Notes: generated from the sequence alone by a model not told the origin. DNA of 64,000 nt from Nannocystis bainbridge (GCF_028368995.1 NZ_JAQNDL010000002.1:1888001-1952000), one strand, 5' to 3'. Positions 1,980-64,000 are shown, counted from the first letter of the stretch. A program made the numbers and translations.

Positions 1980-4379
<2,400 letters not shown>

Positions 4380-14490: not shown

Positions 14491-15339
14491 TCAGCCGACG
14501 CGGCGGTAGCGACCGGGCGGCGATTCGACGACGAGCCCGAGGCGCTGGGCCGTCAGCAGATCGACCAGGCGCGTCAGTGGATCGGGGATGGCGTCGAGGC
14601 CCAGGCCGTGCGGTCCGGCCGCTGCGAGCGCCGCATCGAGCCAGGCGAGCTCGGGCGGGAAGCGCCGCACCGACGCGGCCTCGCCGGCGAGCCAGCGCGT
14701 GAACGCCGGGGCGAACGCGTCCGGCTCGCCCGGCAAGCCCGTGGCGCCGCGAGCCACCAGATCGGCGCAGCCAGGGCTGCCGAGCACGACCGCGAGCCGA
14801 CGCTTGCGCTTCAGGGCGCACAGCCCGGTGCCGTGGCTGCCCGAGCGCGCGGCGGCCTCGACCACCAGCACCGCCGCGGCGAGCTCGACGACGACGGCGT
14901 TGCGACTGGCGAACATCGGCCGGCAGAACTCGGTGCCGGGCGGGTGACAGAACAGCAGGCCCGAGCCCGCGGCCCCGGCGATCGACCTGTACCAGGGGAC
15001 ATGTTGCGAGGGATAGGGCCGATCGGCGCCGCACGGCAGGACCGCCAGCTGCGGCACGCCGGCCGCCAGCGCCGCGCGGTGGGCCGCGATGTCGACGCCG
15101 ATGGCGCCGCCGGAGACCAGGGCGAGGCCGGCGGCCCGCATGGCGGCGATCGTCGGCTCGAGCAACGCGAGGCGATCACGCCGCGCGGCGCGGCTGCCGA
15201 CGATCGCCAGGCGCGGCGCGGGCGGCAGCTCGCCGGCGAGGAAGTAAGGGCCCGCGCTGGCGAGGCCGAGGTCGACGGGAGGGACAGGTCGCGGCGTGAA
15301 CACAAGGAGAGGTCGCTGCGAGGGCGCCTTCTTTTGCAC
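14491..15339 (-). CDS. dprA: DNA-processing protein DprA/Smf (short form)
   Basis: LAIVGSR, LVSGGAIGVDIAAHRAAL, FASRNAVV, VLVVEAAARSGSHGT, C-terminal winged-helix-like LGLVVESPPGRY; start uncertain. Confidence 0.85.
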   Translation of the reverse strand: MQKKAPSQRPLLVFTPRPVPPVDLGLASAGPYFLAGELPPAPRLAIVGSRAARRDRLALLEPTIAAMRAAGLALVSGGAIGVDIAAHRAALAAGVPQLAVLPCGADRPYPSQHVPWYRSIAGAAGSGLLFCHPPGTEFCRPMFASRNAVVVELAAAVLVVEAAARSGSHGTGLCALKRKRRLAVVLGSPGCADLVARGATGLPGEPDAFAPAFTRWLAGEAASVRRFPPELAWLDAALAAAGPHGLGLDAIPDPLTRLVDLLTAQRLGLVVESPPGRYRRVG

Positions 15340-17441: not shown

Positions 17442-20400
17442 GTGCCCATGACGCCGCAGATCTTCGGCCGCTACGCGCTGATCGAGCAGATCGGCGAGGG
17501 AGGCATGGCCGACGTGTTCCTCGCCGAGGCCGGCGTCGCCGAGGGCCTGAAGAAGCGCGTCGTCATCAAGAAGATCCGCAGCGACGTCGCCGACCAGCCC
17601 GAGTTCATGCGGATGTTCGTCGCCGAGGCGGAGGTCGCCCTCGGCCTCAACCACGCCAACATCGTCCAGGTGTTCGACTTCGGCCGCGTCGGCGGGGCCT
17701 TTTACCTCGCCATGGAGTTGGTCGAGGGCGTCGACTTGATGCGCATGGTCCGGCTGGTCGGCCAGCGCGGCGAGCGGGTGCCGATCGTCATCGCCGCGTA
17801 CATCGCCCACCAGGTCGCGGCCGGCCTCGCCTACGCGCACGCCAAGCGCGACGACTTCGGCCGCCCGCTGGCGATCGTCCACCGCGACATCAGCCCGCAC
17901 AACATCATGCTGAGCCTCGCCGGCACGGTGAAGATCCTCGACTTCGGCATCGCTCGCACCGCCGCCAAGGCGCGCCGCGACGGCGGCGCCGAGGACAGCA
18001 CGATCCAGGGCAAGATCGCGTACATGTCGCCCGAGCAGGCCAACGGCTGGCCGCTCGACGCCCGCTCCGACATCTACTCGCTCGGCGTGGTCCTCTACGA
18101 GCTGCTGACCGGCGAGCTGGTGTTCCGCGACGCCGACCGCATGGCCGCGCTCGAGCAGGTCCGCACGCGCCCGCTGCCGCCGCTGCGCCGCGTCGCGCCC
18201 GAGGTGCCCGAGGTGCTGGCCGCGGTGGTCGACCGCGCCCTCGCGCGCGAGCCGGCCGAGCGGTGGGACAGCGCGCGCGCCATGCAGAGCGCGCTGGCGG
18301 CGTTTCTTCACCGCGCCGATCCGGTCGTCGACGACGAGGTGCTGTCGGCCTTCGTCGCCGCGCGCGTGCCAGAGCAACTGTACGACCGCGGCTCGGGCGA
18401 CGCCGAGGTCACGCGCGAGCTCGAGGGCTCGCAGTCGCAGCTGCACGCGCCGCCGCGGCCCGAGGTGCGGCGCGTCGTGCTGCTCAAGGCCGCGCTGGCG
18501 CCGGCGCTCGGCGTCGAGGATCCGCTCGAGCCGGCCCGGTTCTTCGCGCTGGCCCGCGACATCGCCTACAAGCGCGACGCCCAGGTGAGCGAGCTCGGGG
18601 CGCGCGGCCTCTTGCTCGTGTTCGGCGCCGTGCTCGATCCCGGCGACGTCGACGAGGCGGCGCTGCGGGCCGCGCTGGCCCTGCGCGAGGCGGCCAGCGA
18701 GGCGGCGCCCGGGCACCAGATCGGCGTGGTCCTGGCCGCCGCGCCCTTGCCGATCCGACATGTCCCTTCGGGCATGCCCGCGGTCGAGGTCGGCCACGAT
18801 CTGCGGCGTCACCTGCAGACGATGGCCGACGGCGTGCTCGACGGGCCGGTGCTGGTCGCCGGCGATCTGGCGGCGCGGCTGGCCGGGTCGTGGCAGTTCG
18901 GGCCGCCGCGGGCGATCGAGGTCGTGCGCCCGCGTCGCGCCGCCGACCTCACCGGCGGCGTGCTGCCGCCGTGGGCCAGCGCGCTCGCGCAGGCGGTGCC
19001 GCTGCTCGGGCCGGTGGTCGCGCCGCGGCTCGTGACCGTCGGCGGGCGCCAGCCGCTGTACGGCCGCGAGCTCGAGCTCAAGCTGCTGCGCGACAGCTTC
19101 GCCGAGGCGATCCGGGCCCGGGTCGCGCGCACGGTGCTGGTCGTCGGCGGCCCGGGGATCGGCAAGCGCGCCCTGCTCGACCGCTTCCTCGCCGCCCTGC
19201 CCCGCGGCGGCTGCGTGGTCCTGCGCGCGCGCGGCCAGTGGCGCCGCCGCAACGTCCCGTTCGGGGTGTTCCAGGAGATGCTGCGGCAGTTCCTCGACGC
19301 CGGCCCGGAGACCACCACGGCCGACATCGAGTCGCGCCTGGCCAGCGAGCGGGTGGTCGGCGCCGGCGAGCTGGCGCAGGCGCTCGCGCGCGCGCTCGGC
19401 GTGTCCCCCGGGACAGGTCTCAACGTACATGTCCGAACGGACAGCGACGGCGCCGGCGATCCGCGGTCGCGGCGCGAGCGGCTGTGGCGACCGATCCGCC
19501 GCCTGATCCGCGCCCTCGCCCAGCGCCGGCCGGTGCTGATGGTGGTCGAGGACCTCCACTTCGTCGACGCTCACAGCCTCGGCCTGCTGCACGAGTGGCT
19601 GCAGGAGCCGCACAGCCTGCCGCTCATGGGCCTCGCCACCGCCCGCCCCGGCCCGCGCGCCGACGAGCTGCGGGCGCTGCCGGGCGTGCACGCGATCGAG
19701 CTGCGCGAGCTCGACGACCACGCCCGCCGCGAGCTGGTGGTCCGCCGCTTCGACGACCCCGCCGAGGCCGAGGAGCTGGCCGCGGCGATCGTCGCGCGCA
19801 CCGGCGGCAACCCGCTGTTCATCGAGGAGACCCTGGCCGAGCTGCTGCGCCGCGGCGTGGTCGGCCCCGGCGACGACGGTCGGATGTGGCGCGTGCACCA
19901 GCGCGGCGCTCGCATCGAGGTCCCGCCGAGCGTCGAGGACGCGCTGCTGGCCCGCCTCGACGCGCTCGACCCCGAGGCGCGCGCGCTGATCGACGGCGCG
20001 GCCGTGCTTGGCCTGACCTTTCGGACAGGTGAACTCGCGGCCCTGCTGCAGCGCCCGCAGGCCGAGCTCGTCGAACCTCTGGCCGCGCTGGTCGACGCCG
20101 GCCTGCTCGAGCGCCCGCCGCTGCCGGCCGGCACGCCCGCGGCGGCCCGGTTCGCCACCCTCAGCCTGCACGAGGTCGCCCGCGGCAACCTGTCCTCGGG
20201 GACATGCGAGGGCATGCACGCGCGGGCCGCCGAGCTCAAGGCGGCCCGCGCCGACTACCAGCCCGGGCGCGACGACGGCCCGATCGCCGATCACTGGGCC
20301 CAGGCGCGCCGGCCCGAGGCGGCGATCGAGCCGGCCCTGCGCGCGGCCCGGTTCGCCCGCGACGTCGCCGGCAACGTCGAGGCCTACTACTACCTGTCGC

Positions 20401-21704
20401 TGGCGCTGCGCTCGATGCGGCCCGAGGCCGATCCGCGGGCCTGGGACGCGCTGCGCGAGCGCGAGGCGATCCTGGCCGCGTGGGGCCGCCGGCGGGCCCA
20501 GGGCGCCGATCTTCGGGCGCTCTTGCGGCTCGCGCTCGGCACCAACGAGCGCGAGGTGTTCGCGCTCGGCCGCCTGCTCCGCTTCTACCTCGACTGTGGG
20601 CGCATCCAGCGGGCCCAACAATTGTTCCCGCGCCTGGCCCGTCAGACCGAGGCCCTGCCCGACGCCGACCCGCACCGCGGCCTCGTCGGCGAGCTCGGCT
20701 CGGCGCTGATGCTGGCGCGCGACCGGCCCGAGGAGGCCGAGCGCCTCGCCGCCGCCGGCCTGGCCCACTGCCCGCCCGAGGCCGCCGCCCAGCGCTGCCG
20801 CCTCCACGCCGCGTTGGGCCGGGCTCAGCTCGCGCAGGGTCGGCTGGCCGAGGCGGTGGTCAACTTCGAGGCCACGCTGCACCTGGCCCAAAAGACAGGT
20901 CTCCTGCGGCTCGAGGGCGAGGCGCTCAACAGCCTCGGCGAGGTCGCCGGCCGCGGCACCCGCTATCAGGAGGCGGTCGACTACTTCCGCGCCGCGCTGC
21001 AGGTCGACCGCGACCTCGGCGACCGGGCGGCGACCGGCACCAAGCTGGCCAACCTCGGCATCGTCTACACCGCGATCGGCCTCTATCGCCGCGCCGAACG
21101 CTACCTCCGCAAGGCGCTCGAGCTGCACGAGGCGATCGGTCACCCCGGCCTGCTGCTCGAGGTCGTCGTCAACCTCGGCGAGGTCTCGGCCGAGCACGGC
21201 GACGTCCAGGCCGCGCGCGCGCTGCTGCTGCACGCCGCCGACATGGCCGCCGCCCGCGGCGACGCCCGCACCGAGCTGCGGGCCCGCGCCCGCCTGGCCC
21301 GCGCCCTCGTCGACGGCAGCCCGCCCGACCTCGAAGAGGCCCGGGTCCTCGCCGAAGCCGTGCTGGCCCGCGCCCGCGGCCTCGGCCTGCGCACCGCCAC
21401 CTGTCGCGCGCTGCATGTCCTTTCGCGCCTGTCCGAACAGACAGGCGACCTCACGACCGCGCGCGCGCTCGAGGAGGAGGCGGTCGAGCTGGTCCGCGCC
21501 GGCGCGGCCCCGATCGACGGGGTGCTTTCGATCCACCACCTCGGCCACCTGCTGGCCGAGGTCCGCCCGGCCGAGTCGGCGGCCCTGCTCGCCGACGCCG
21601 CTGCTGCCGTGCGCGCCCGCCTCGAGGGCCTGCGCGACGAGGACCTGCGCCGCGGCTACCTGGCCCAGGCGAAGGTCCAGGAGATCCTCGGCGAGGCCGA
21701 GTGA
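17442..21704 (+). CDS. Ser/Thr kinase fused to a degenerate nucleotide-cyclase-like domain, AAA/STAND-like ATPase and TPRs
   Basis: IGEGGMADV, VIKKI, HRDISPHN, DFG, YMSPEQ; GLLLVFGA...AALRAALAL; GGPGIGK and VVEDLH; TGGNPLFIEE; C-terminal TPRs. Confidence 0.92.
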   Translation: MPMTPQIFGRYALIEQIGEGGMADVFLAEAGVAEGLKKRVVIKKIRSDVADQPEFMRMFVAEAEVALGLNHANIVQVFDFGRVGGAFYLAMELVEGVDLMRMVRLVGQRGERVPIVIAAYIAHQVAAGLAYAHAKRDDFGRPLAIVHRDISPHNIMLSLAGTVKILDFGIARTAAKARRDGGAEDSTIQGKIAYMSPEQANGWPLDARSDIYSLGVVLYELLTGELVFRDADRMAALEQVRTRPLPPLRRVAPEVPEVLAAVVDRALAREPAERWDSARAMQSALAAFLHRADPVVDDEVLSAFVAARVPEQLYDRGSGDAEVTRELEGSQSQLHAPPRPEVRRVVLLKAALAPALGVEDPLEPARFFALARDIAYKRDAQVSELGARGLLLVFGAVLDPGDVDEAALRAALALREAASEAAPGHQIGVVLAAAPLPIRHVPSGMPAVEVGHDLRRHLQTMADGVLDGPVLVAGDLAARLAGSWQFGPPRAIEVVRPRRAADLTGGVLPPWASALAQAVPLLGPVVAPRLVTVGGRQPLYGRELELKLLRDSFAEAIRARVARTVLVVGGPGIGKRALLDRFLAALPRGGCVVLRARGQWRRRNVPFGVFQEMLRQFLDAGPETTTADIESRLASERVVGAGELAQALARALGVSPGTGLNVHVRTDSDGAGDPRSRRERLWRPIRRLIRALAQRRPVLMVVEDLHFVDAHSLGLLHEWLQEPHSLPLMGLATARPGPRADELRALPGVHAIELRELDDHARRELVVRRFDDPAEAEELAAAIVARTGGNPLFIEETLAELLRRGVVGPGDDGRMWRVHQRGARIEVPPSVEDALLARLDALDPEARALIDGAAVLGLTFRTGELAALLQRPQAELVEPLAALVDAGLLERPPLPAGTPAAARFATLSLHEVARGNLSSGTCEGMHARAAELKAARADYQPGRDDGPIADHWAQARRPEAAIEPALRAARFARDVAGNVEAYYYLSLALRSMRPEADPRAWDALREREAILAAWGRRRAQGADLRALLRLALGTNEREVFALGRLLRFYLDCGRIQRAQQLFPRLARQTEALPDADPHRGLVGELGSALMLARDRPEEAERLAAAGLAHCPPEAAAQRCRLHAALGRAQLAQGRLAEAVVNFEATLHLAQKTGLLRLEGEALNSLGEVAGRGTRYQEAVDYFRAALQVDRDLGDRAATGTKLANLGIVYTAIGLYRRAERYLRKALELHEAIGHPGLLLEVVVNLGEVSAEHGDVQAARALLLHAADMAAARGDARTELRARARLARALVDGSPPDLEEARVLAEAVLARARGLGLRTATCRALHVLSRLSEQTGDLTTARALEEEAVELVRAGAAPIDGVLSIHHLGHLLAEVRPAESAALLADAAAAVRARLEGLRDEDLRRGYLAQAKVQEILGEAE

Positions 21705-32438: not shown

Positions 32439-33230
32439 ATGCGCTCGCTTAGCTTCGCCTCCGTCCTCGCCGCGCTGCTCGCCTGCACCCCGACCGAGCC
32501 CGGCACCACGGACACCGGCACCGCCTCGGGCACCGCCACGAGCACGACCACCGGCACCACGGCCGGCACCACCGCTCCGACCGGCGACCTCACCACCAGC
32601 ACCACCGGCGGCACCGCGACCGGCGGCATGACCACCGCGCCGACGACCTCGACCTCCACCACGTCGACGACCTCGACCGCCACCACCGAGCCCGCGACTT
32701 CGACGTCGACCACCTCGACCACGAGCCCCGGCACCGCGACCACCGACGACACCGGCGCCGTCGACCCGCAGTGCGCCCCGGCCACCGGTGACTACGGCGA
32801 CTGCGAAGCCGTGCTCGGCTTCGCCTTCGACGGCACCGAGTGCACCCTGCGCTCCGGCTGCGGCTGCGGCCCCGACTGCGACAAGTTCTTCCCCAGCGCC
32901 TCCGCCTGCGCCCTCGCCTGCGCCGCCGCCGACCACTGCAACCCGGACGAGTTCGACGGCGCCGGCCTCGTCAAACCGCCGATCCAGCCGGGCACCCACT
33001 GCGACGGCGTCTACGTGTGCCCCGGCGCCGACGCCGAGCTCAAGCAGGCCTACGTGGACATCTTCGGCCTGCTGACCTGCGAGCCGGGCGATTTCCCCTG
33101 CAGCGAGAACGGCGAGGTCTGCACCGGCCTGCTCGCGGGCACGCTCGGCCCCGAGGAGTGGGCCAAGCTGTGCGCCGCCAGCCTGCTGCCGAACTCCGGC
33201 CCCTTCATCTGCACCGTCTTCGGCCCCTGA
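32439..33230 (+). CDS. Lipoprotein with Thr-rich linker and Cys-rich (Kunitz/BPTI-like) domain
   Basis: MRSLSFASVLAALLAC; long T/S/G linker; C...GDCEAVLGFAFDGTEC...GCGC...FFPSASACALAC. Confidence 0.8.
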   Translation: MRSLSFASVLAALLACTPTEPGTTDTGTASGTATSTTTGTTAGTTAPTGDLTTSTTGGTATGGMTTAPTTSTSTTSTTSTATTEPATSTSTTSTTSPGTATTDDTGAVDPQCAPATGDYGDCEAVLGFAFDGTECTLRSGCGCGPDCDKFFPSASACALACAAADHCNPDEFDGAGLVKPPIQPGTHCDGVYVCPGADAELKQAYVDIFGLLTCEPGDFPCSENGEVCTGLLAGTLGPEEWAKLCAASLLPNSGPFICTVFGP

Positions 33231-33241
33231 GCCCGCGAGGG

Positions 33242-33441
33242 CGACCTGTCCCTACGAACAGGTAGACGCTCCGCCGGCGACCTGTCCCTACGAACAGGTA
33301 GCGGGCTCCGCTCCGACCCGTCCCCACGAACAGGTGCCGGATCCGCCCGACGGCCTGTCCTTGCGAACAGGTAGCGGGCTCCGCTCCGACCTGTCCCCAC
33401 GAACCAGCTCCGCCCCGCGACCTGTCCCCACGGACAGGCAC
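33242..33441. repeat. Six ~36-bp repeats, each carrying a 20-bp palindrome ACCTGTCC-N4-G(A/G)ACAGGT
   Basis: Cores start at 33247, 33283, 33319, 33356, 33392, 33423; linkers 2 and 4 are identical (agcgggctccgctc); convergent junction. Confidence 0.9.
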
Positions 33442-40913: not shown

Positions 40914-40941
40914 TGCCCGAAAGGACATGCCCGAAGGGACA
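40914..40941. repeat. Two abutting 14-bp units in a divergent intergenic region
   Basis: tgccc gaaa ggaca|tgccc gaag ggaca. Confidence 0.8.
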
Positions 40942-46678: not shown

Positions 46679-46815
46679 GCCTGCCGGCATGTCGCCCGGG
46701 ACATGTCCTCGGGCCCATGTACGAACGCGCATGTCCGCAAGGACATGCCCGAACGCGCATGTTCTCCAGGACATGCACGAACGAGCATGTCCGCGAGGAC
46801 ATGCTCGTTCCGTCA
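46676..46815. repeat. Ten-unit head-to-tail array of the 14-bp palindrome
   Basis: tgagc ctgc cggca|tgtcg cccg ggaca|tgtcc tcgg gccca|tgtac gaac gcgca|tgtcc gcaa ggaca|tgccc gaac gcgca|tgttc tcca ggaca|tgcac gaac gagca|tgtcc gcga ggaca|tgctc gttc cgtca. Confidence 0.93.
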
Positions 46816-50754: not shown

Positions 50755-51167
50755 ACCTGTCTCTCGGACCAGAAGGTCCACGCACCAAGAATCTGTCCCT
50801 CGGGCCAGGTCCCATCGGAGCGGGTCTCTCGGTTGGATACCGACTGACCTGCCCCGCGAGTCAGAACGTCCCACGCCGACGACCTGGCCCTCGGGACAGC
50901 CCCGGGCGTACCGCCCACTGTCCGGCCCGCAACCTATCCCTCTGGCCAGGCTCGCCCGAACTCACCTGTCCCGCGGGCCAGCCTCACCCGCGAGCTCGCC
51001 CTCCTCTGTCCCTCTATCCCTCGGGCCAGACTCACCCGCGAGCTCTACCTCACCTGTCCCTCGGGCCAGCCTCGCCCGAAATCACCTGTCCCTCGGGCCA
51101 GCCTCGCCCGCGAGCTCGACCTCCCCAGTCCCCTCGGGCCAGCCTCGCCCGTGAGCTCGACCTCCCC
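50755..51167. repeat. Spaced array of about ten ACCTGTCC-CTCG-GGCCAG units
   Basis: Cores at 50758, 50794, 50850, 50885, 50935, 50967, 51015, 51055, 51087, 51128; later copies are followed by cctcgcccg(cgagctc). Confidence 0.85.
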
Positions 51168-62124: not shown

Positions 62125-63825
62125 ATGGTGAGACTCGCATCCGGAGGGCCGCCCGAGGGCCGCAGCGTGCTCGCGCTGCTGCGGGCCGTGATCGCCCTCG
62201 TCGTCACCCTCACGATCCTCACCTTCGCGCTCTACTCCGGCTATCTCTCGTACACCGACCTCTCGCCGGAGGAGGTCCGCGTCCCGACCGCCGAGCTCAC
62301 GGTCGACCGCGCCGGCCGCCGCGTCACCTACGGCCGCTCGTCGCTCACCCGCGAGAGTCGGCTGTGGTTCCTCCACCTCGAGGGTCCGCCGGAGGAGATC
62401 GGCGACGCCCACGGCCGCCTCGCCGCCCGCCTGTGGGGCGAGCTCGACCGCGACGTCGCGCGCCTGCTGCGCAACCGCTACCCCGAGGGCCTCGAGCGCT
62501 GGACCGCCGACATGGTCATGCGCTGGGACTTCCGCGAGTCCGACCACAGCCTCTCCCCCGGCGTGCGCCGCGAGCTGGCCGCCCTGGCCGCCGCCATGCC
62601 CGAGGCCGGCGGCGAGCGGCTCTCGAGCTACCACCGCCTCTTCCTCGACCAGAGCTTCGTCGAGCTGACGCGCCGCCTCGACGACGTCCTGCTCGAGGGC
62701 ACCATGTTCGCCGCCGCCGCGCGGCCCAAAGGCGGCGGAGAGCGCGGCAACCTCGTCATCGGCCGCAGCTTCTTCGCCGACCTCGGCCTCGACGTCGAGC
62801 CCGACCGCCTCGTCACCATCGTCCACCCCGACGGCAAGTACCCGTTCGCCTCGGTCGGCTGGGCCGGCCTCATGGGCGTCGTCACCGGCATCAACGCCCG
62901 CGGGATCTTCGTCGCCCTCGACCCCACGCGCACCGACGACGCGCTCGAGGAGGGCGTGCCGCTGCCGCTGATCCTGCGCCAGATCCTCGAGGACGCCGAC
63001 ACCCTCGAGCAGGCGCTCGAGATCCTGCAGACCGCCCCGGCGCGCACCTCGGGCGCCGTGCTGGTCGGCGACGGCCGCCAGCGCCGCGCCGCCGTCGTCG
63101 AGCTCGCGCGCGACCGCGACGATCGCAAGCCGCGCGGCGAAGACCAGGCGCTGGTGTGGGCCACCAATCACATGCTGCGCGAGTCGTTCGAGCGTGACGC
63201 CCAGAACGACCGCATCCGCCGCTTCACCTCGAGCGGCTACCGCTACGATCGCCTCGGCGAGCTGCTGGCCGAGGCGCCCGTCGACCCGGCGCGCGCGGTC
63301 GCCATCCTGCGCGACCGCAAGGGCCTCGGCGGCGAGGAGCTCGGGCTCGGCAACCGCAACGCGGTCGACAACCTCCACCTCACCCACGCGGTCGTCGTCG
63401 ACGCCACCGCCATGGTCATGTGGGTCGGCGAGGGCCCGTCGTCGCTCGGCCGCTTCCGCGCGATCGACCTCCGCCACGCCCTCGGCCGCCGCCAGGAGCG
63501 CCCGGCCCCGCTCGACGACTTCCCCGCCGACCGCCTGCTCCACGGCGAGGAGTACAGCGACTACAAGGAGGCCCTCGAGGCCCTCGACCACGCCCGCGGC
63601 CTGCTGGCCCGCGGCCTGCCCGAGCAGGCCCTGGCGTCCGCCAGCGTCGCCCTGGCCCTCGCCCCCGACGTCGGCGAGCTGCACCGCCTGCTCGGCGACA
63701 TCGAGCGCGAGCTCGGCGACCTGCCCGCCGCCCGCCGCCACTACGAGCGCTACCTCGAGCTGGTCCCCGGCCGCCTGCGCGACCAGGAGCGCGTCCGCGG
63801 CCTGCTCGAAGAGCTGCGCGAGTAA
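62125..63825 (+). CDS. Peptidase C45/AAT-like Ntn-hydrolase with N-terminal TM and C-terminal TPR
   Basis: LEGPPEEIGDAHG, LVIGRSF, SVGWAGLMGVVTGIN, ATNH, S.YRY.RL, HAVV; TPR tail. Confidence 0.82.
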   Translation: MVRLASGGPPEGRSVLALLRAVIALVVTLTILTFALYSGYLSYTDLSPEEVRVPTAELTVDRAGRRVTYGRSSLTRESRLWFLHLEGPPEEIGDAHGRLAARLWGELDRDVARLLRNRYPEGLERWTADMVMRWDFRESDHSLSPGVRRELAALAAAMPEAGGERLSSYHRLFLDQSFVELTRRLDDVLLEGTMFAAAARPKGGGERGNLVIGRSFFADLGLDVEPDRLVTIVHPDGKYPFASVGWAGLMGVVTGINARGIFVALDPTRTDDALEEGVPLPLILRQILEDADTLEQALEILQTAPARTSGAVLVGDGRQRRAAVVELARDRDDRKPRGEDQALVWATNHMLRESFERDAQNDRIRRFTSSGYRYDRLGELLAEAPVDPARAVAILRDRKGLGGEELGLGNRNAVDNLHLTHAVVVDATAMVMWVGEGPSSLGRFRAIDLRHALGRRQERPAPLDDFPADRLLHGEEYSDYKEALEALDHARGLLARGLPEQALASASVALALAPDVGELHRLLGDIERELGDLPAARRHYERYLELVPGRLRDQERVRGLLEELRE

Positions 63826-63833
63826 ACACGCCG

Positions 63834-64000
63834 GGACATGTCCTTACGGGCATGTCCGACAGGGCATGCCCCTGAGGACATGCCCGTTCGAGCATGTCCT
63901 CCAGGACACCATGCACACGGCCGCCGGCGAGCTGCCCGTGCTCGCCGCTGCCGCGCGACGCGTGCCCGCGATGACCGTCCGAAGGGACATGTCGACTCGA
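63834..64000. repeat. Five-unit array of the 14-bp palindrome, plus further copies at the window end
   Basis: ggaca|tgtcc ttac gggca|tgtcc gaca gggca|tgccc ctga ggaca|tgccc gttc gagca|tgtcc tcca ggaca; 63976 cgtcc gaag ggaca|tgtcg. Confidence 0.9.

Follow-up and report, generated by a model that had tools for sequence, protein, structure and literature searches.

A genus-restricted interrupted palindrome, TGTCC-N4-GGACA, overrides codon choice in a kinase gene and across the genome of Nannocystis

We analysed a 64,000-nucleotide stretch of Nannocystis bainbridge (GCF_028368995.1, NZ_JAQNDL010000002.1:1888001-1952000; hereafter the window), in which a kinase-ATPase gene at 17442-21704 carries six clusters of a short motif. 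We found that the six clusters represent copies, inside the gene, of TGTCC-N4-GGACA, a genus-wide interrupted palindrome. It is the DNA word that is constrained and not the peptide, and both this DNA-level constraint and the origin of the copies in place can be stated with high confidence. In addition, we propose that the word is read by a putative two-fold symmetric DNA-binding factor, to which we give a probability of about one half.

Copies in the kinase gene and across the genome

The product of the kinase gene matched the Pfam families Pkinase (1e-39), AAA_16 (5e-17) and TPR_12, and full-length orthologs occur in 16 or more relatives. The gene and its six clusters (the clusters are listed without strand) are as follows.

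17442-21704, plus strand: Ser/Thr kinase + AAA_16 (STAND-type ATPase) + TPR gene, one open reading frame of 1420 codons
18747-18774: two abutting units (arm mismatches: 3 and 1), located in the linker between kinase and ATPase
19402-19443: three units, TGTCC CCCG GGACA / GGTCT CAAC GTACA / TGTCC GAAC GGACA, with 0, 3 and 0 arm mismatches; 14 codons in a variable insert of AAA_16
20014-20027: single unit TGACC TTTC GGACA (1 mismatch), followed by GGT
20191-20204: exact single unit TGTCC TCGG GGACA
20884-20897: weak unit TGGCC CAAA AGACA (2 mismatches), followed by GGT
21402-21443: three units in phase, TGTCG CGCG CTGCA / TGTCC TTTC GCGCC / TGTCC GAAC AGACA, with 4, 3 and 1 mismatches; encodes the conserved peptide CRALHVLSRL

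The initial annotation had placed these clusters on codons shifted to A/T-ending forms. Their sequence and coordinates were confirmed letter for letter, and the clusters are real, with several degenerate member units. Exact units start at 19402, 19430 and 20191, units with one mismatch at 18761, 20014 and 21430, and a unit with two mismatches at 20884. The degenerate units (3-4 mismatches) at 18747, 19416, 21402 and 21416 abut good units in exact 14-bp phase. The quoted codons are in frame, and the codon shift is found as described: 62 of the 1420 codons of the gene end in A or T, and 20 of them fall within the 60 codons of the six clusters (odds ratio 15.7, p = 3e-14). Furthermore, all five ACA codons of the gene lie inside motif clusters.

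The window as a whole holds 14 exact matches (0.04 expected from shuffles) and 58 matches with at most one mismatch (1.53 expected). Six of these 58 lie inside the 4.26-kb kinase gene, where about 0.1 were expected, which is about 60 times the chance share. Genes were called with a simple procedure of our own (7816 genes, 82% coding), and all codon and frame statistics are based on 6125 confident genes. Among these, the kinase gene ranks 22nd by motif count. Its motif density (1.41/kb against a mean of 0.27/kb for coding sequence) ranks 15th among the 273 genes of at least 3 kb. The kinase gene is an upper-tail carrier of the motif and is not unique.

The genome of the window comprises 11.05 Mb with 71.5% G+C, and there were 1987 exact copies of TGTCC-N4-GGACA against about 9.5 expected from base composition. 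Only the spacer of 4 is abundant: the same arms with spacers of 0-3 or 5-9 gave at most 16 copies, and the half-word TGTCC by itself is not enriched (12351 copies vs 10638 expected). One mismatch was present in a further 4258 copies, and two mismatches in 7530. Neighbouring copies lie 14 bp (n = 485), 28 bp (n = 274) or 42 bp (n = 165) apart, and distances of 15-20 bp are almost lacking. Therefore, the units abut in exact register, and the unit junction GGACA-TGTCC is itself palindromic. The loops of adjacent units were identical in 19 of 485 pairs (6 expected), and the remainder look random. Since the loops of adjacent units are unrelated, the arrays are not fresh slippage products, and recent slippage was rejected as their origin.

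The copies are concentrated behind genes. Of the exact copies, 746 are in genes and 1228 are intergenic, and the density is 7.6-fold higher outside genes. Gaps between convergent genes carry 4.55 copies/kb, with a copy in 735 of 1405 such gaps (52%). Co-directional gaps carry 1.6-1.8 copies/kb (about one in five to one in four with a copy), and divergent gaps 0.64 copies/kb (about one in six). The median copy in co-directional gaps is located 74 bp past the upstream stop codon and 199 bp ahead of the next start. Within genes, the copies are evenly distributed along gene length, with slightly fewer in the last fifth; thus, spill-over from gene ends was rejected as the source of the in-gene copies. 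Arrays of 1 to 6 units in genes numbered 1796, 314, 85, 31, 18 and 11, respectively.

The motif density is also uneven along the contigs (variance/mean 5.7) and is lower in lower-GC stretches. For instance, G000:C1:1100000-1300000 and C2:750000-800000 hold 2-6 copies per 50 kb (mean, 28), with a G+C content of 0.68-0.70. They may represent islands that were acquired, or constrained genes of very large size. At the level of genes, protein divergence and motif density were not correlated (Spearman 0.05, p = 0.48), and the slowest-evolving quartile alone was motif-poorer (0.18 vs 0.40-0.60 per kb).

Codon use, maintenance and origin of the copies in genes

The motif (at most one mismatch) covers 8623 of 2,545,924 codons (0.339%). 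Against this coverage, it holds 27.1% of the ACA codons (685/2524), 6.1% of the TGT codons (159/2615) and 4.9% of the GGA codons (242/4982), as well as 164 of 2626 CTT codons. The share of CGA codons is only 1.0% (60/5971). Thus, the proposed link between rare codons and motif positions stands genome-wide for ACA, TGT and GGA and is weak for CGA. Meanwhile, the G+C content at third positions is 0.735 in the motif and 0.95 overall.

The frame test used 10 synonymous shuffles in which every protein and codon pool was preserved. Exact in-gene copies starting at codon positions 1, 2 and 3 numbered 52, 233 and 404, against 0.0, 0.4 and 9.0 in the shuffles. The enrichment is found in all three frames, and therefore the word is imposed in every frame, most often where the fewest rare codons are needed. 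The reading-frame independence of the motif is accordingly partial: the word is hugely enriched in each frame, whereas the absolute counts track codon cost.

The maintenance of the motif was studied in 472 kb around the window, aligned to the congeners G001 and G003 (identity 90.4% and 88.7%). In the arms of in-gene copies, 8 of 117 A/T third positions had changed in G001 (72.9 expected) and 10 of 108 in G003 (69.7 expected), and A/T third positions in the background differ at 62% and 65%. The G/C third positions of the arms were held as well (7/309 changed in G001, 39.3 expected; 20/296 in G003, 45.1 expected). In contrast, the in-gene loop bases changed as expected (67/452 in G001, 65.4 expected; 58/424 in G003, 67.7 expected). 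In addition, ACA codons were retained at 33 of 35 and 29 of 35 positions in the motif, and at 32 of 73 and 29 of 69 outside it. These results bear out the initial claim that the motif is maintained against the G+C bias of third positions. The rare A/T-ending codons (ACA, TGT, GGA, CTT and GGT) pile up at the motif because its arms are held between species while its centre drifts. Since the rare codons are unchanged between species, a signal in the DNA itself overrides the normal codon choice.

As the in-gene loops change at the expected rate, we read them as unconstrained, and the idea of hypermutable loops was rejected. Loop flipping by hairpin inversion was also rejected, with an exact inversion in just 1 of 39 changed in-gene loops. 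Between genes, differences affect 11% of the arm positions and 47-54% of the loop positions, with 105 and 115 array sites unaligned; register slips in the arrays may contribute to these loop differences. At the few strictly flanked single sites, 2 of 24 loop bases (6 sites) and 4 of 12 (3 sites) had changed.

One could suppose that selection on the peptide, such as a favoured V-P-x-D-S, or an accident of composition produces the word. Indeed, the richest genes carry the motif in one frame, within repeated acidic or proline-rich linkers, and in the repeated acidic linkers of motif-rich genes the word is translated as (A/P)-V-(P/L/S)-x-D-(S/T/M). However, the word is enriched in three frames and in non-coding DNA, the conserved positions are the synonymous ones, and pure synonymous recodings exist. 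The tests of frame and of synonymous sites refute peptide-level selection, and we leave this explanation hardly any probability. As an example of a motif-rich gene, a TPR protein (L100, G000:C2:2066054-2070511, minus strand) has 21 copies in a single frame, which sit in a long repeated acidic linker with ...PEAVPADS... every 12-20 residues. Similar long tails occur in ScpA-, Arf-, HEAT- and kinase-WD40 proteins.

The origin of the copies can be followed in the kinase gene, for which 7 of 12 orthologs were compared (L003, L004, L006, L009 and L012 were left out). Five of the six clusters are common to G001 and G003. The ortholog in G008 has none of the clusters, that in the distant congener G009 has one elsewhere, and two other genera have none. 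Furthermore, for five of the six clusters, orthologs without the cluster align colinearly, and the codon alignment showed no indel at 20014, 20191, 20884 or 21402. The unit at 18761-18774 has one mismatch and a different loop in G001 and G003, and distant orthologs are without it. The unit at 20014 is identical in both congeners and colinear with CGC GTC GAC in G008 and G009. The unit at 20191 has one mismatch in both congeners and is colinear but absent in G008, G009, G016 and G012. Residues were also changed at 20014 and 20191. At 20884, G001 and G003 both have the codons CAA AAG ACA GGT, which distant orthologs lack. The peptide at 21402, CRALHVLSRL, is kept as far as other genera, and its codons have moved toward the motif (TGC to TGT, CAC to CAT, and CTG or CTC to CTT).

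A synonymous case is found in the gene at 1980-4379, which encodes Lon (alignment of 20 of 30 loci).

3871-3884 (listed without strand): lon motif unit TGACC CGAG GGACA, followed by GGT; Gly-Thr-Gly recoded purely synonymously

The six close genomes all encode this Gly-Thr-Gly by GGG ACA GGT, and the five distant congeners by GGC ACC GGC (n = 4) or GGC ACC GGA (n = 1). Thus, lon shows the same codon shift as the kinase gene, as had been noticed from the window.

In a wider sample of 47 sites in genes, colinearity with a relative was seen at 33 (21/28 in G009 and 12/19 in the other genus G011), and the word was absent in the relative at 29 of these 33 sites (17 in G009 and 12 in G011). At one in-gene site, Tyr-Val-Phe-Leu-Asp-Arg was recoded with six synonymous differences. 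The residues under the word were less conserved than the whole alignments (60/117 vs 61%; 25/64 vs 57%). Most in-gene copies arose in place mainly by point substitution, the changes being synonymous in constrained parts of the protein and replacements in loose ones.

Alternatively, a mobile mini-element could insert in frame, as Rickettsia palindromic elements do, since three units make 42 bp or 14 codons. The segment 19402-19443, the sole kinase cluster tied to an indel, is 6-10 codons shorter in distant orthologs. In addition, indels lie within 3 codons of 14 of the 47 in-gene sites (7/28 in G009 and 7/19 in G011), against backgrounds of 13% and 12%. However, the 33 colinear sites and the array-size distribution in genes, with no excess at 3 or 6 units, largely refute an insertion of 42 bp. 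The lon site and the 21402 cluster also lie on conserved peptides, and the loops of neighbouring units are unrelated. Moreover, Y1 transposase/RAYT (PF01797) or IS200 gave no match in the genome of the window (90.5% complete, 5 contigs), with positive controls in 6 of 14 genomes. We consider such insertion very improbable.

A putative protein reader and its alternatives

Three readings of the word were ordered as follows: a symmetric reader of double-stranded DNA is favoured, a drive resembling uptake or repair is second, and a hairpin at gene ends is third. The proposed reader would be a two-fold symmetric, sequence-specific factor that recognizes the word on double-stranded DNA. Its half-sites would lie 9 bp apart, and the centre would not be contacted. 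The exact 14-bp-phased arrays behind genes would be its main sites, and the single in-gene sites would be part of the same chromosome-wide set.

Several features of the motif fit recognition of a sequence. G2 and C13 of the motif are nearly invariant, and compensatory double variants are mostly near expectation and weakly enriched overall. Relative to transcription, neither strand is favoured in the loops (TTCG 90 vs CGAA 88; GNRA 93 vs 93), and G-U-compatible single variants in genes are not preferred (283 vs 348). From these comparisons of arms, loops and wobble pairs, reading of the sequence appears to be favoured over reading of a structure. Folding of single units in genes is weak (z = -1.7 to -1.9). 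The arrays behave differently, and three of them in the window (all listed without strand) serve as examples.

46690-46815: nine-unit phased array between convergent genes, an example of the main habitat of the motif; fold -77.5 kcal/mol, z = -7.1
63825-63908: six-unit phased array that begins at the stop codon of the upstream gene; fold z = -6.9
40914-40941: two-unit array; arms and CATG junction kept in three species, all eight loop bases different, flanks well aligned

In the nine-unit array, TGTCC-N4-GGACA alternates with TGNNC-GAAC-GNGCA, which gives a super-period of 28 bp, and hairpins of 10-14 bp span the CATG junctions. Two related repeats were also seen in the window. A 36/73-bp tandem repeat with the motif-like core CCTGTCCCYACGAACAGGTAG lies at 33242-33404, in the gap past the gene ending at 33230, and it represents a family of longer repeats with the TGTCC/GGACA arms at its core. 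Overlapping tandem repeats at 50969-51167 (periods of 32, 41, 48 and 72 bp) contain CACCTGTCCCTCGGGCCAG units with the one-mismatch arm GGCCA.

A number of observations weigh against a protein reader. Intergenic arrays fold into long and very stable hairpins (stems of 8-14 bp, z about -7). At the fourth pair of the arms, formed by motif bases 4 and 11, T-A doubles are 3.5-fold enriched (38 vs about 11), and G-U-compatible variants show a slight, non-significant excess in co-directional gaps (328 vs 286, p = 0.098). In addition, no reader protein was found or shortlisted, the conservation of sites is equally expected from a drive of the uptake or repair type, and the single in-gene sites have no evident function and are spread evenly along genes.

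Because the arrays fold and the T-A doubles are in excess, the motif may have a hairpin role behind genes. In such a scenario, a structural element of the REP, BIME or TRIT kind would terminate transcription, protect 3′ ends or bind topoisomerase, and the in-gene copies would be spill-over. The copies in 52% of convergent gaps and the median position 74 bp past the upstream stop agree with this role, as do the folds of the two longer arrays listed above, whose stems of 8-14 bp run across the CATG junction, and the occurrence of some compensatory T-A doubles. The genus-restricted gene-end palindrome TRIT provides a precedent (PMC3152330). However, no T-run is found downstream of the units, the loops have no strand bias, wobble tolerance is not significant, and the arm sequence is conserved beyond mere pairing. 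The weakly folding in-gene units are still conserved at synonymous sites and are not concentrated near gene ends, and the genome has no Y1 transposase. Taken together, we regard the structural explanation as rather improbable.

The other explanation is a molecular drive without cellular function, in which biased uptake or recombination (as for uptake sequences) or motif-directed repair or conversion lets the word accumulate where it is cheap. It is consistent with the fall of motif density with constraint, from convergent through co-directional and divergent gaps to coding sequence. In genes, the cheapest frame and disordered linkers are preferred, in-gene sites arise by substitution, and lower-GC, island-like stretches are motif-poor; all of these agree with a drive. 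ComEC and DprA genes are also present in the genome, but both are near-universal (controls were positive in 10 and 11 of 14 genomes). The only DprA match of the genome (DNA_processg_A) is located in the window at 14773-15237 on the minus strand, 2 kb upstream of the kinase gene. Unlike known uptake words, the Nannocystis motif is an obligate palindrome with a fixed spacer, and its half-word is not enriched. Furthermore, a drive does not predict the exact 14-bp phasing of unrelated units, and the 2:1 ratio of one-mismatch copies over exact copies argues against efficient conversion. A drive is an unlikely explanation in our judgement, although it comes second in the order given above.

The symmetric reader can be extended to a chromosome-wide code, which we offer more tentatively than the reader itself. 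A symmetric protein on TGTCC-N4-GGACA would form a lattice on the 14-bp arrays that marks or insulates gene ends, and it would occupy thousands of in-gene sites in addition. Three 14-bp units would correspond to four helical turns in this lattice, and the pull of the protein would be strong enough to recode Lon at synonymous sites. In an equally bold variant, the word would serve as a tag for self-recognition or uptake. If true, no palindromic tag of this kind, and none in myxobacteria, would have been known before.

Taxonomic range and comparison with known systems

TGTCC-N4-GGACA is limited to a single genus. We counted the array pattern GGACATGTCC-N4-GGACATGTCC 20 times in the genome of the window and 3-13 times in 8 of 10 congeners; the two congeners without it are assemblies of 790 and 840 contigs. 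Of 30 further genera in the family and class, not one carried the pattern. In a search of one genome per species across 185,579 species, there were 78 matching stretches, 75 of them in Nannocystis-type records (64 in Nannocystis and 11 in two metagenome-assembled genomes of Nannocystaceae or Myxococcales); the other 3 were single matches elsewhere. The distant congener G009 has the same word 18 times per 94 kb, and G011, a different genus in the family, has 1 exact copy per 95 kb. In addition, no comparable palindrome that could represent a dialect of the sister genus was found in 95 kb of G011. Meanwhile, GTGTA-N2-TACAC occurs 5 times as single sites in 95 kb of that genome (G011:C1:80000-175000, L026-L030; 0.04 expected), and it may be the site set of a regulator.

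No published description of TGTCC-N4-GGACA was found in a literature search whose coverage excluded subscription journals. The word confounds statistics of codon usage and gene transfer, and it accounts for 27% of the ACA codons of the genome. In a genus mined for natural products, it also distinguishes native from acquired DNA. In addition, it has several tractable features, namely a bipartite site, phased arrays suited to pull-down, a sharp genus boundary and revertible synonymous recodings such as that of lon.

The initial annotation had compared the motif with HIP1 and uptake sequences, and this likeness is apt as an analogy. Other repeats are also similar in part. Rickettsia palindromic elements (RPE) are insertions of 100-150 bp. 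Both they and the Nannocystis motif are palindromic repeats that lie in protein-coding genes and leave these genes unbroken; however, most in-gene copies of the latter are colinear recodings and not insertions. REP/BIME/REPIN elements occur with RAYT transposases in enterobacteria and pseudomonads. They share with the Nannocystis motif short palindromic clustered units, mainly behind genes and between convergent genes. In contrast, the Nannocystis motif has no Y1/RAYT gene, consists of 14-bp units with free centres, and is not restricted to extragenic DNA. Hundreds of its copies are in genes (746 of 1987 exact copies); these arose by substitution and are conserved. Its arrays run head-to-tail in exact register, whereas REP/BIME units form inverted pairs.

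The DNA uptake sequences of Neisseria (DUS) and Haemophilus (USS) are asymmetric 9-12-mers that occur singly. The Nannocystis motif resembles them in being genus-specific, in having thousands of copies, in arising by point mutation and in preferring cheaper frames and looser protein segments. Uptake sequences are also often located at gene ends, as inverted pairs. Unlike DUS and USS, the Nannocystis motif has a half-word that is not enriched, a fixed spacer and phased units. A link of uptake sequences to terminators is cited in PMC3152330.

The same source describes TRIT as a palindromic gene-end motif of Mycobacterium with 147 copies, located narrowly at about -8 from the stop codon (Gardner et al. 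2011, PMC3152330). Like the Nannocystis motif, TRIT is described there as a sequence-conserved bidirectional palindrome tied to gene ends in one genus, and a binding factor is suspected for both. Unlike TRIT (PMC3152330), the Nannocystis motif numbers more than 6000 copies, its units form phased arrays, and its copies are conserved all along genes. Its concentration behind genes (4.55/kb in convergent against 0.64/kb in divergent gaps) is typical of a gene-end palindrome.

The closest analogue is HIP1, a contiguous 8-mer, whereas the Nannocystis motif is a 5-N4-5 interrupted palindrome. HIP1 is linked to orphan methyltransferases, and its function is unsolved after decades. HIP1 (GCGATCGC) is described as a highly iterated cyanobacterial palindrome that is over-represented and conserved in and between genes, with its function open (Xu, Lawrence and Durand 2018, PMC5861425). 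Both motifs are hyper-abundant palindromes in and between genes, conserved between genomes beyond neutral expectation, and neither shows a role as a peptide or RNA (PMC5861425). As with HIP1, we found genome-wide over-representation, enrichment in genes in all frames and conservation at orthologous sites for the Nannocystis motif. Unlike HIP1, it forms exact 14-bp arrays, is 7.6-fold denser outside genes, is biased to gene ends, and occurs at 71.5% G+C in one genus. To our knowledge, hyper-abundant words that override codon choice are known from few lineages only (HIP1 and DUS/USS), and next to HIP1 the Nannocystis motif represents a second, independent case of such a word.

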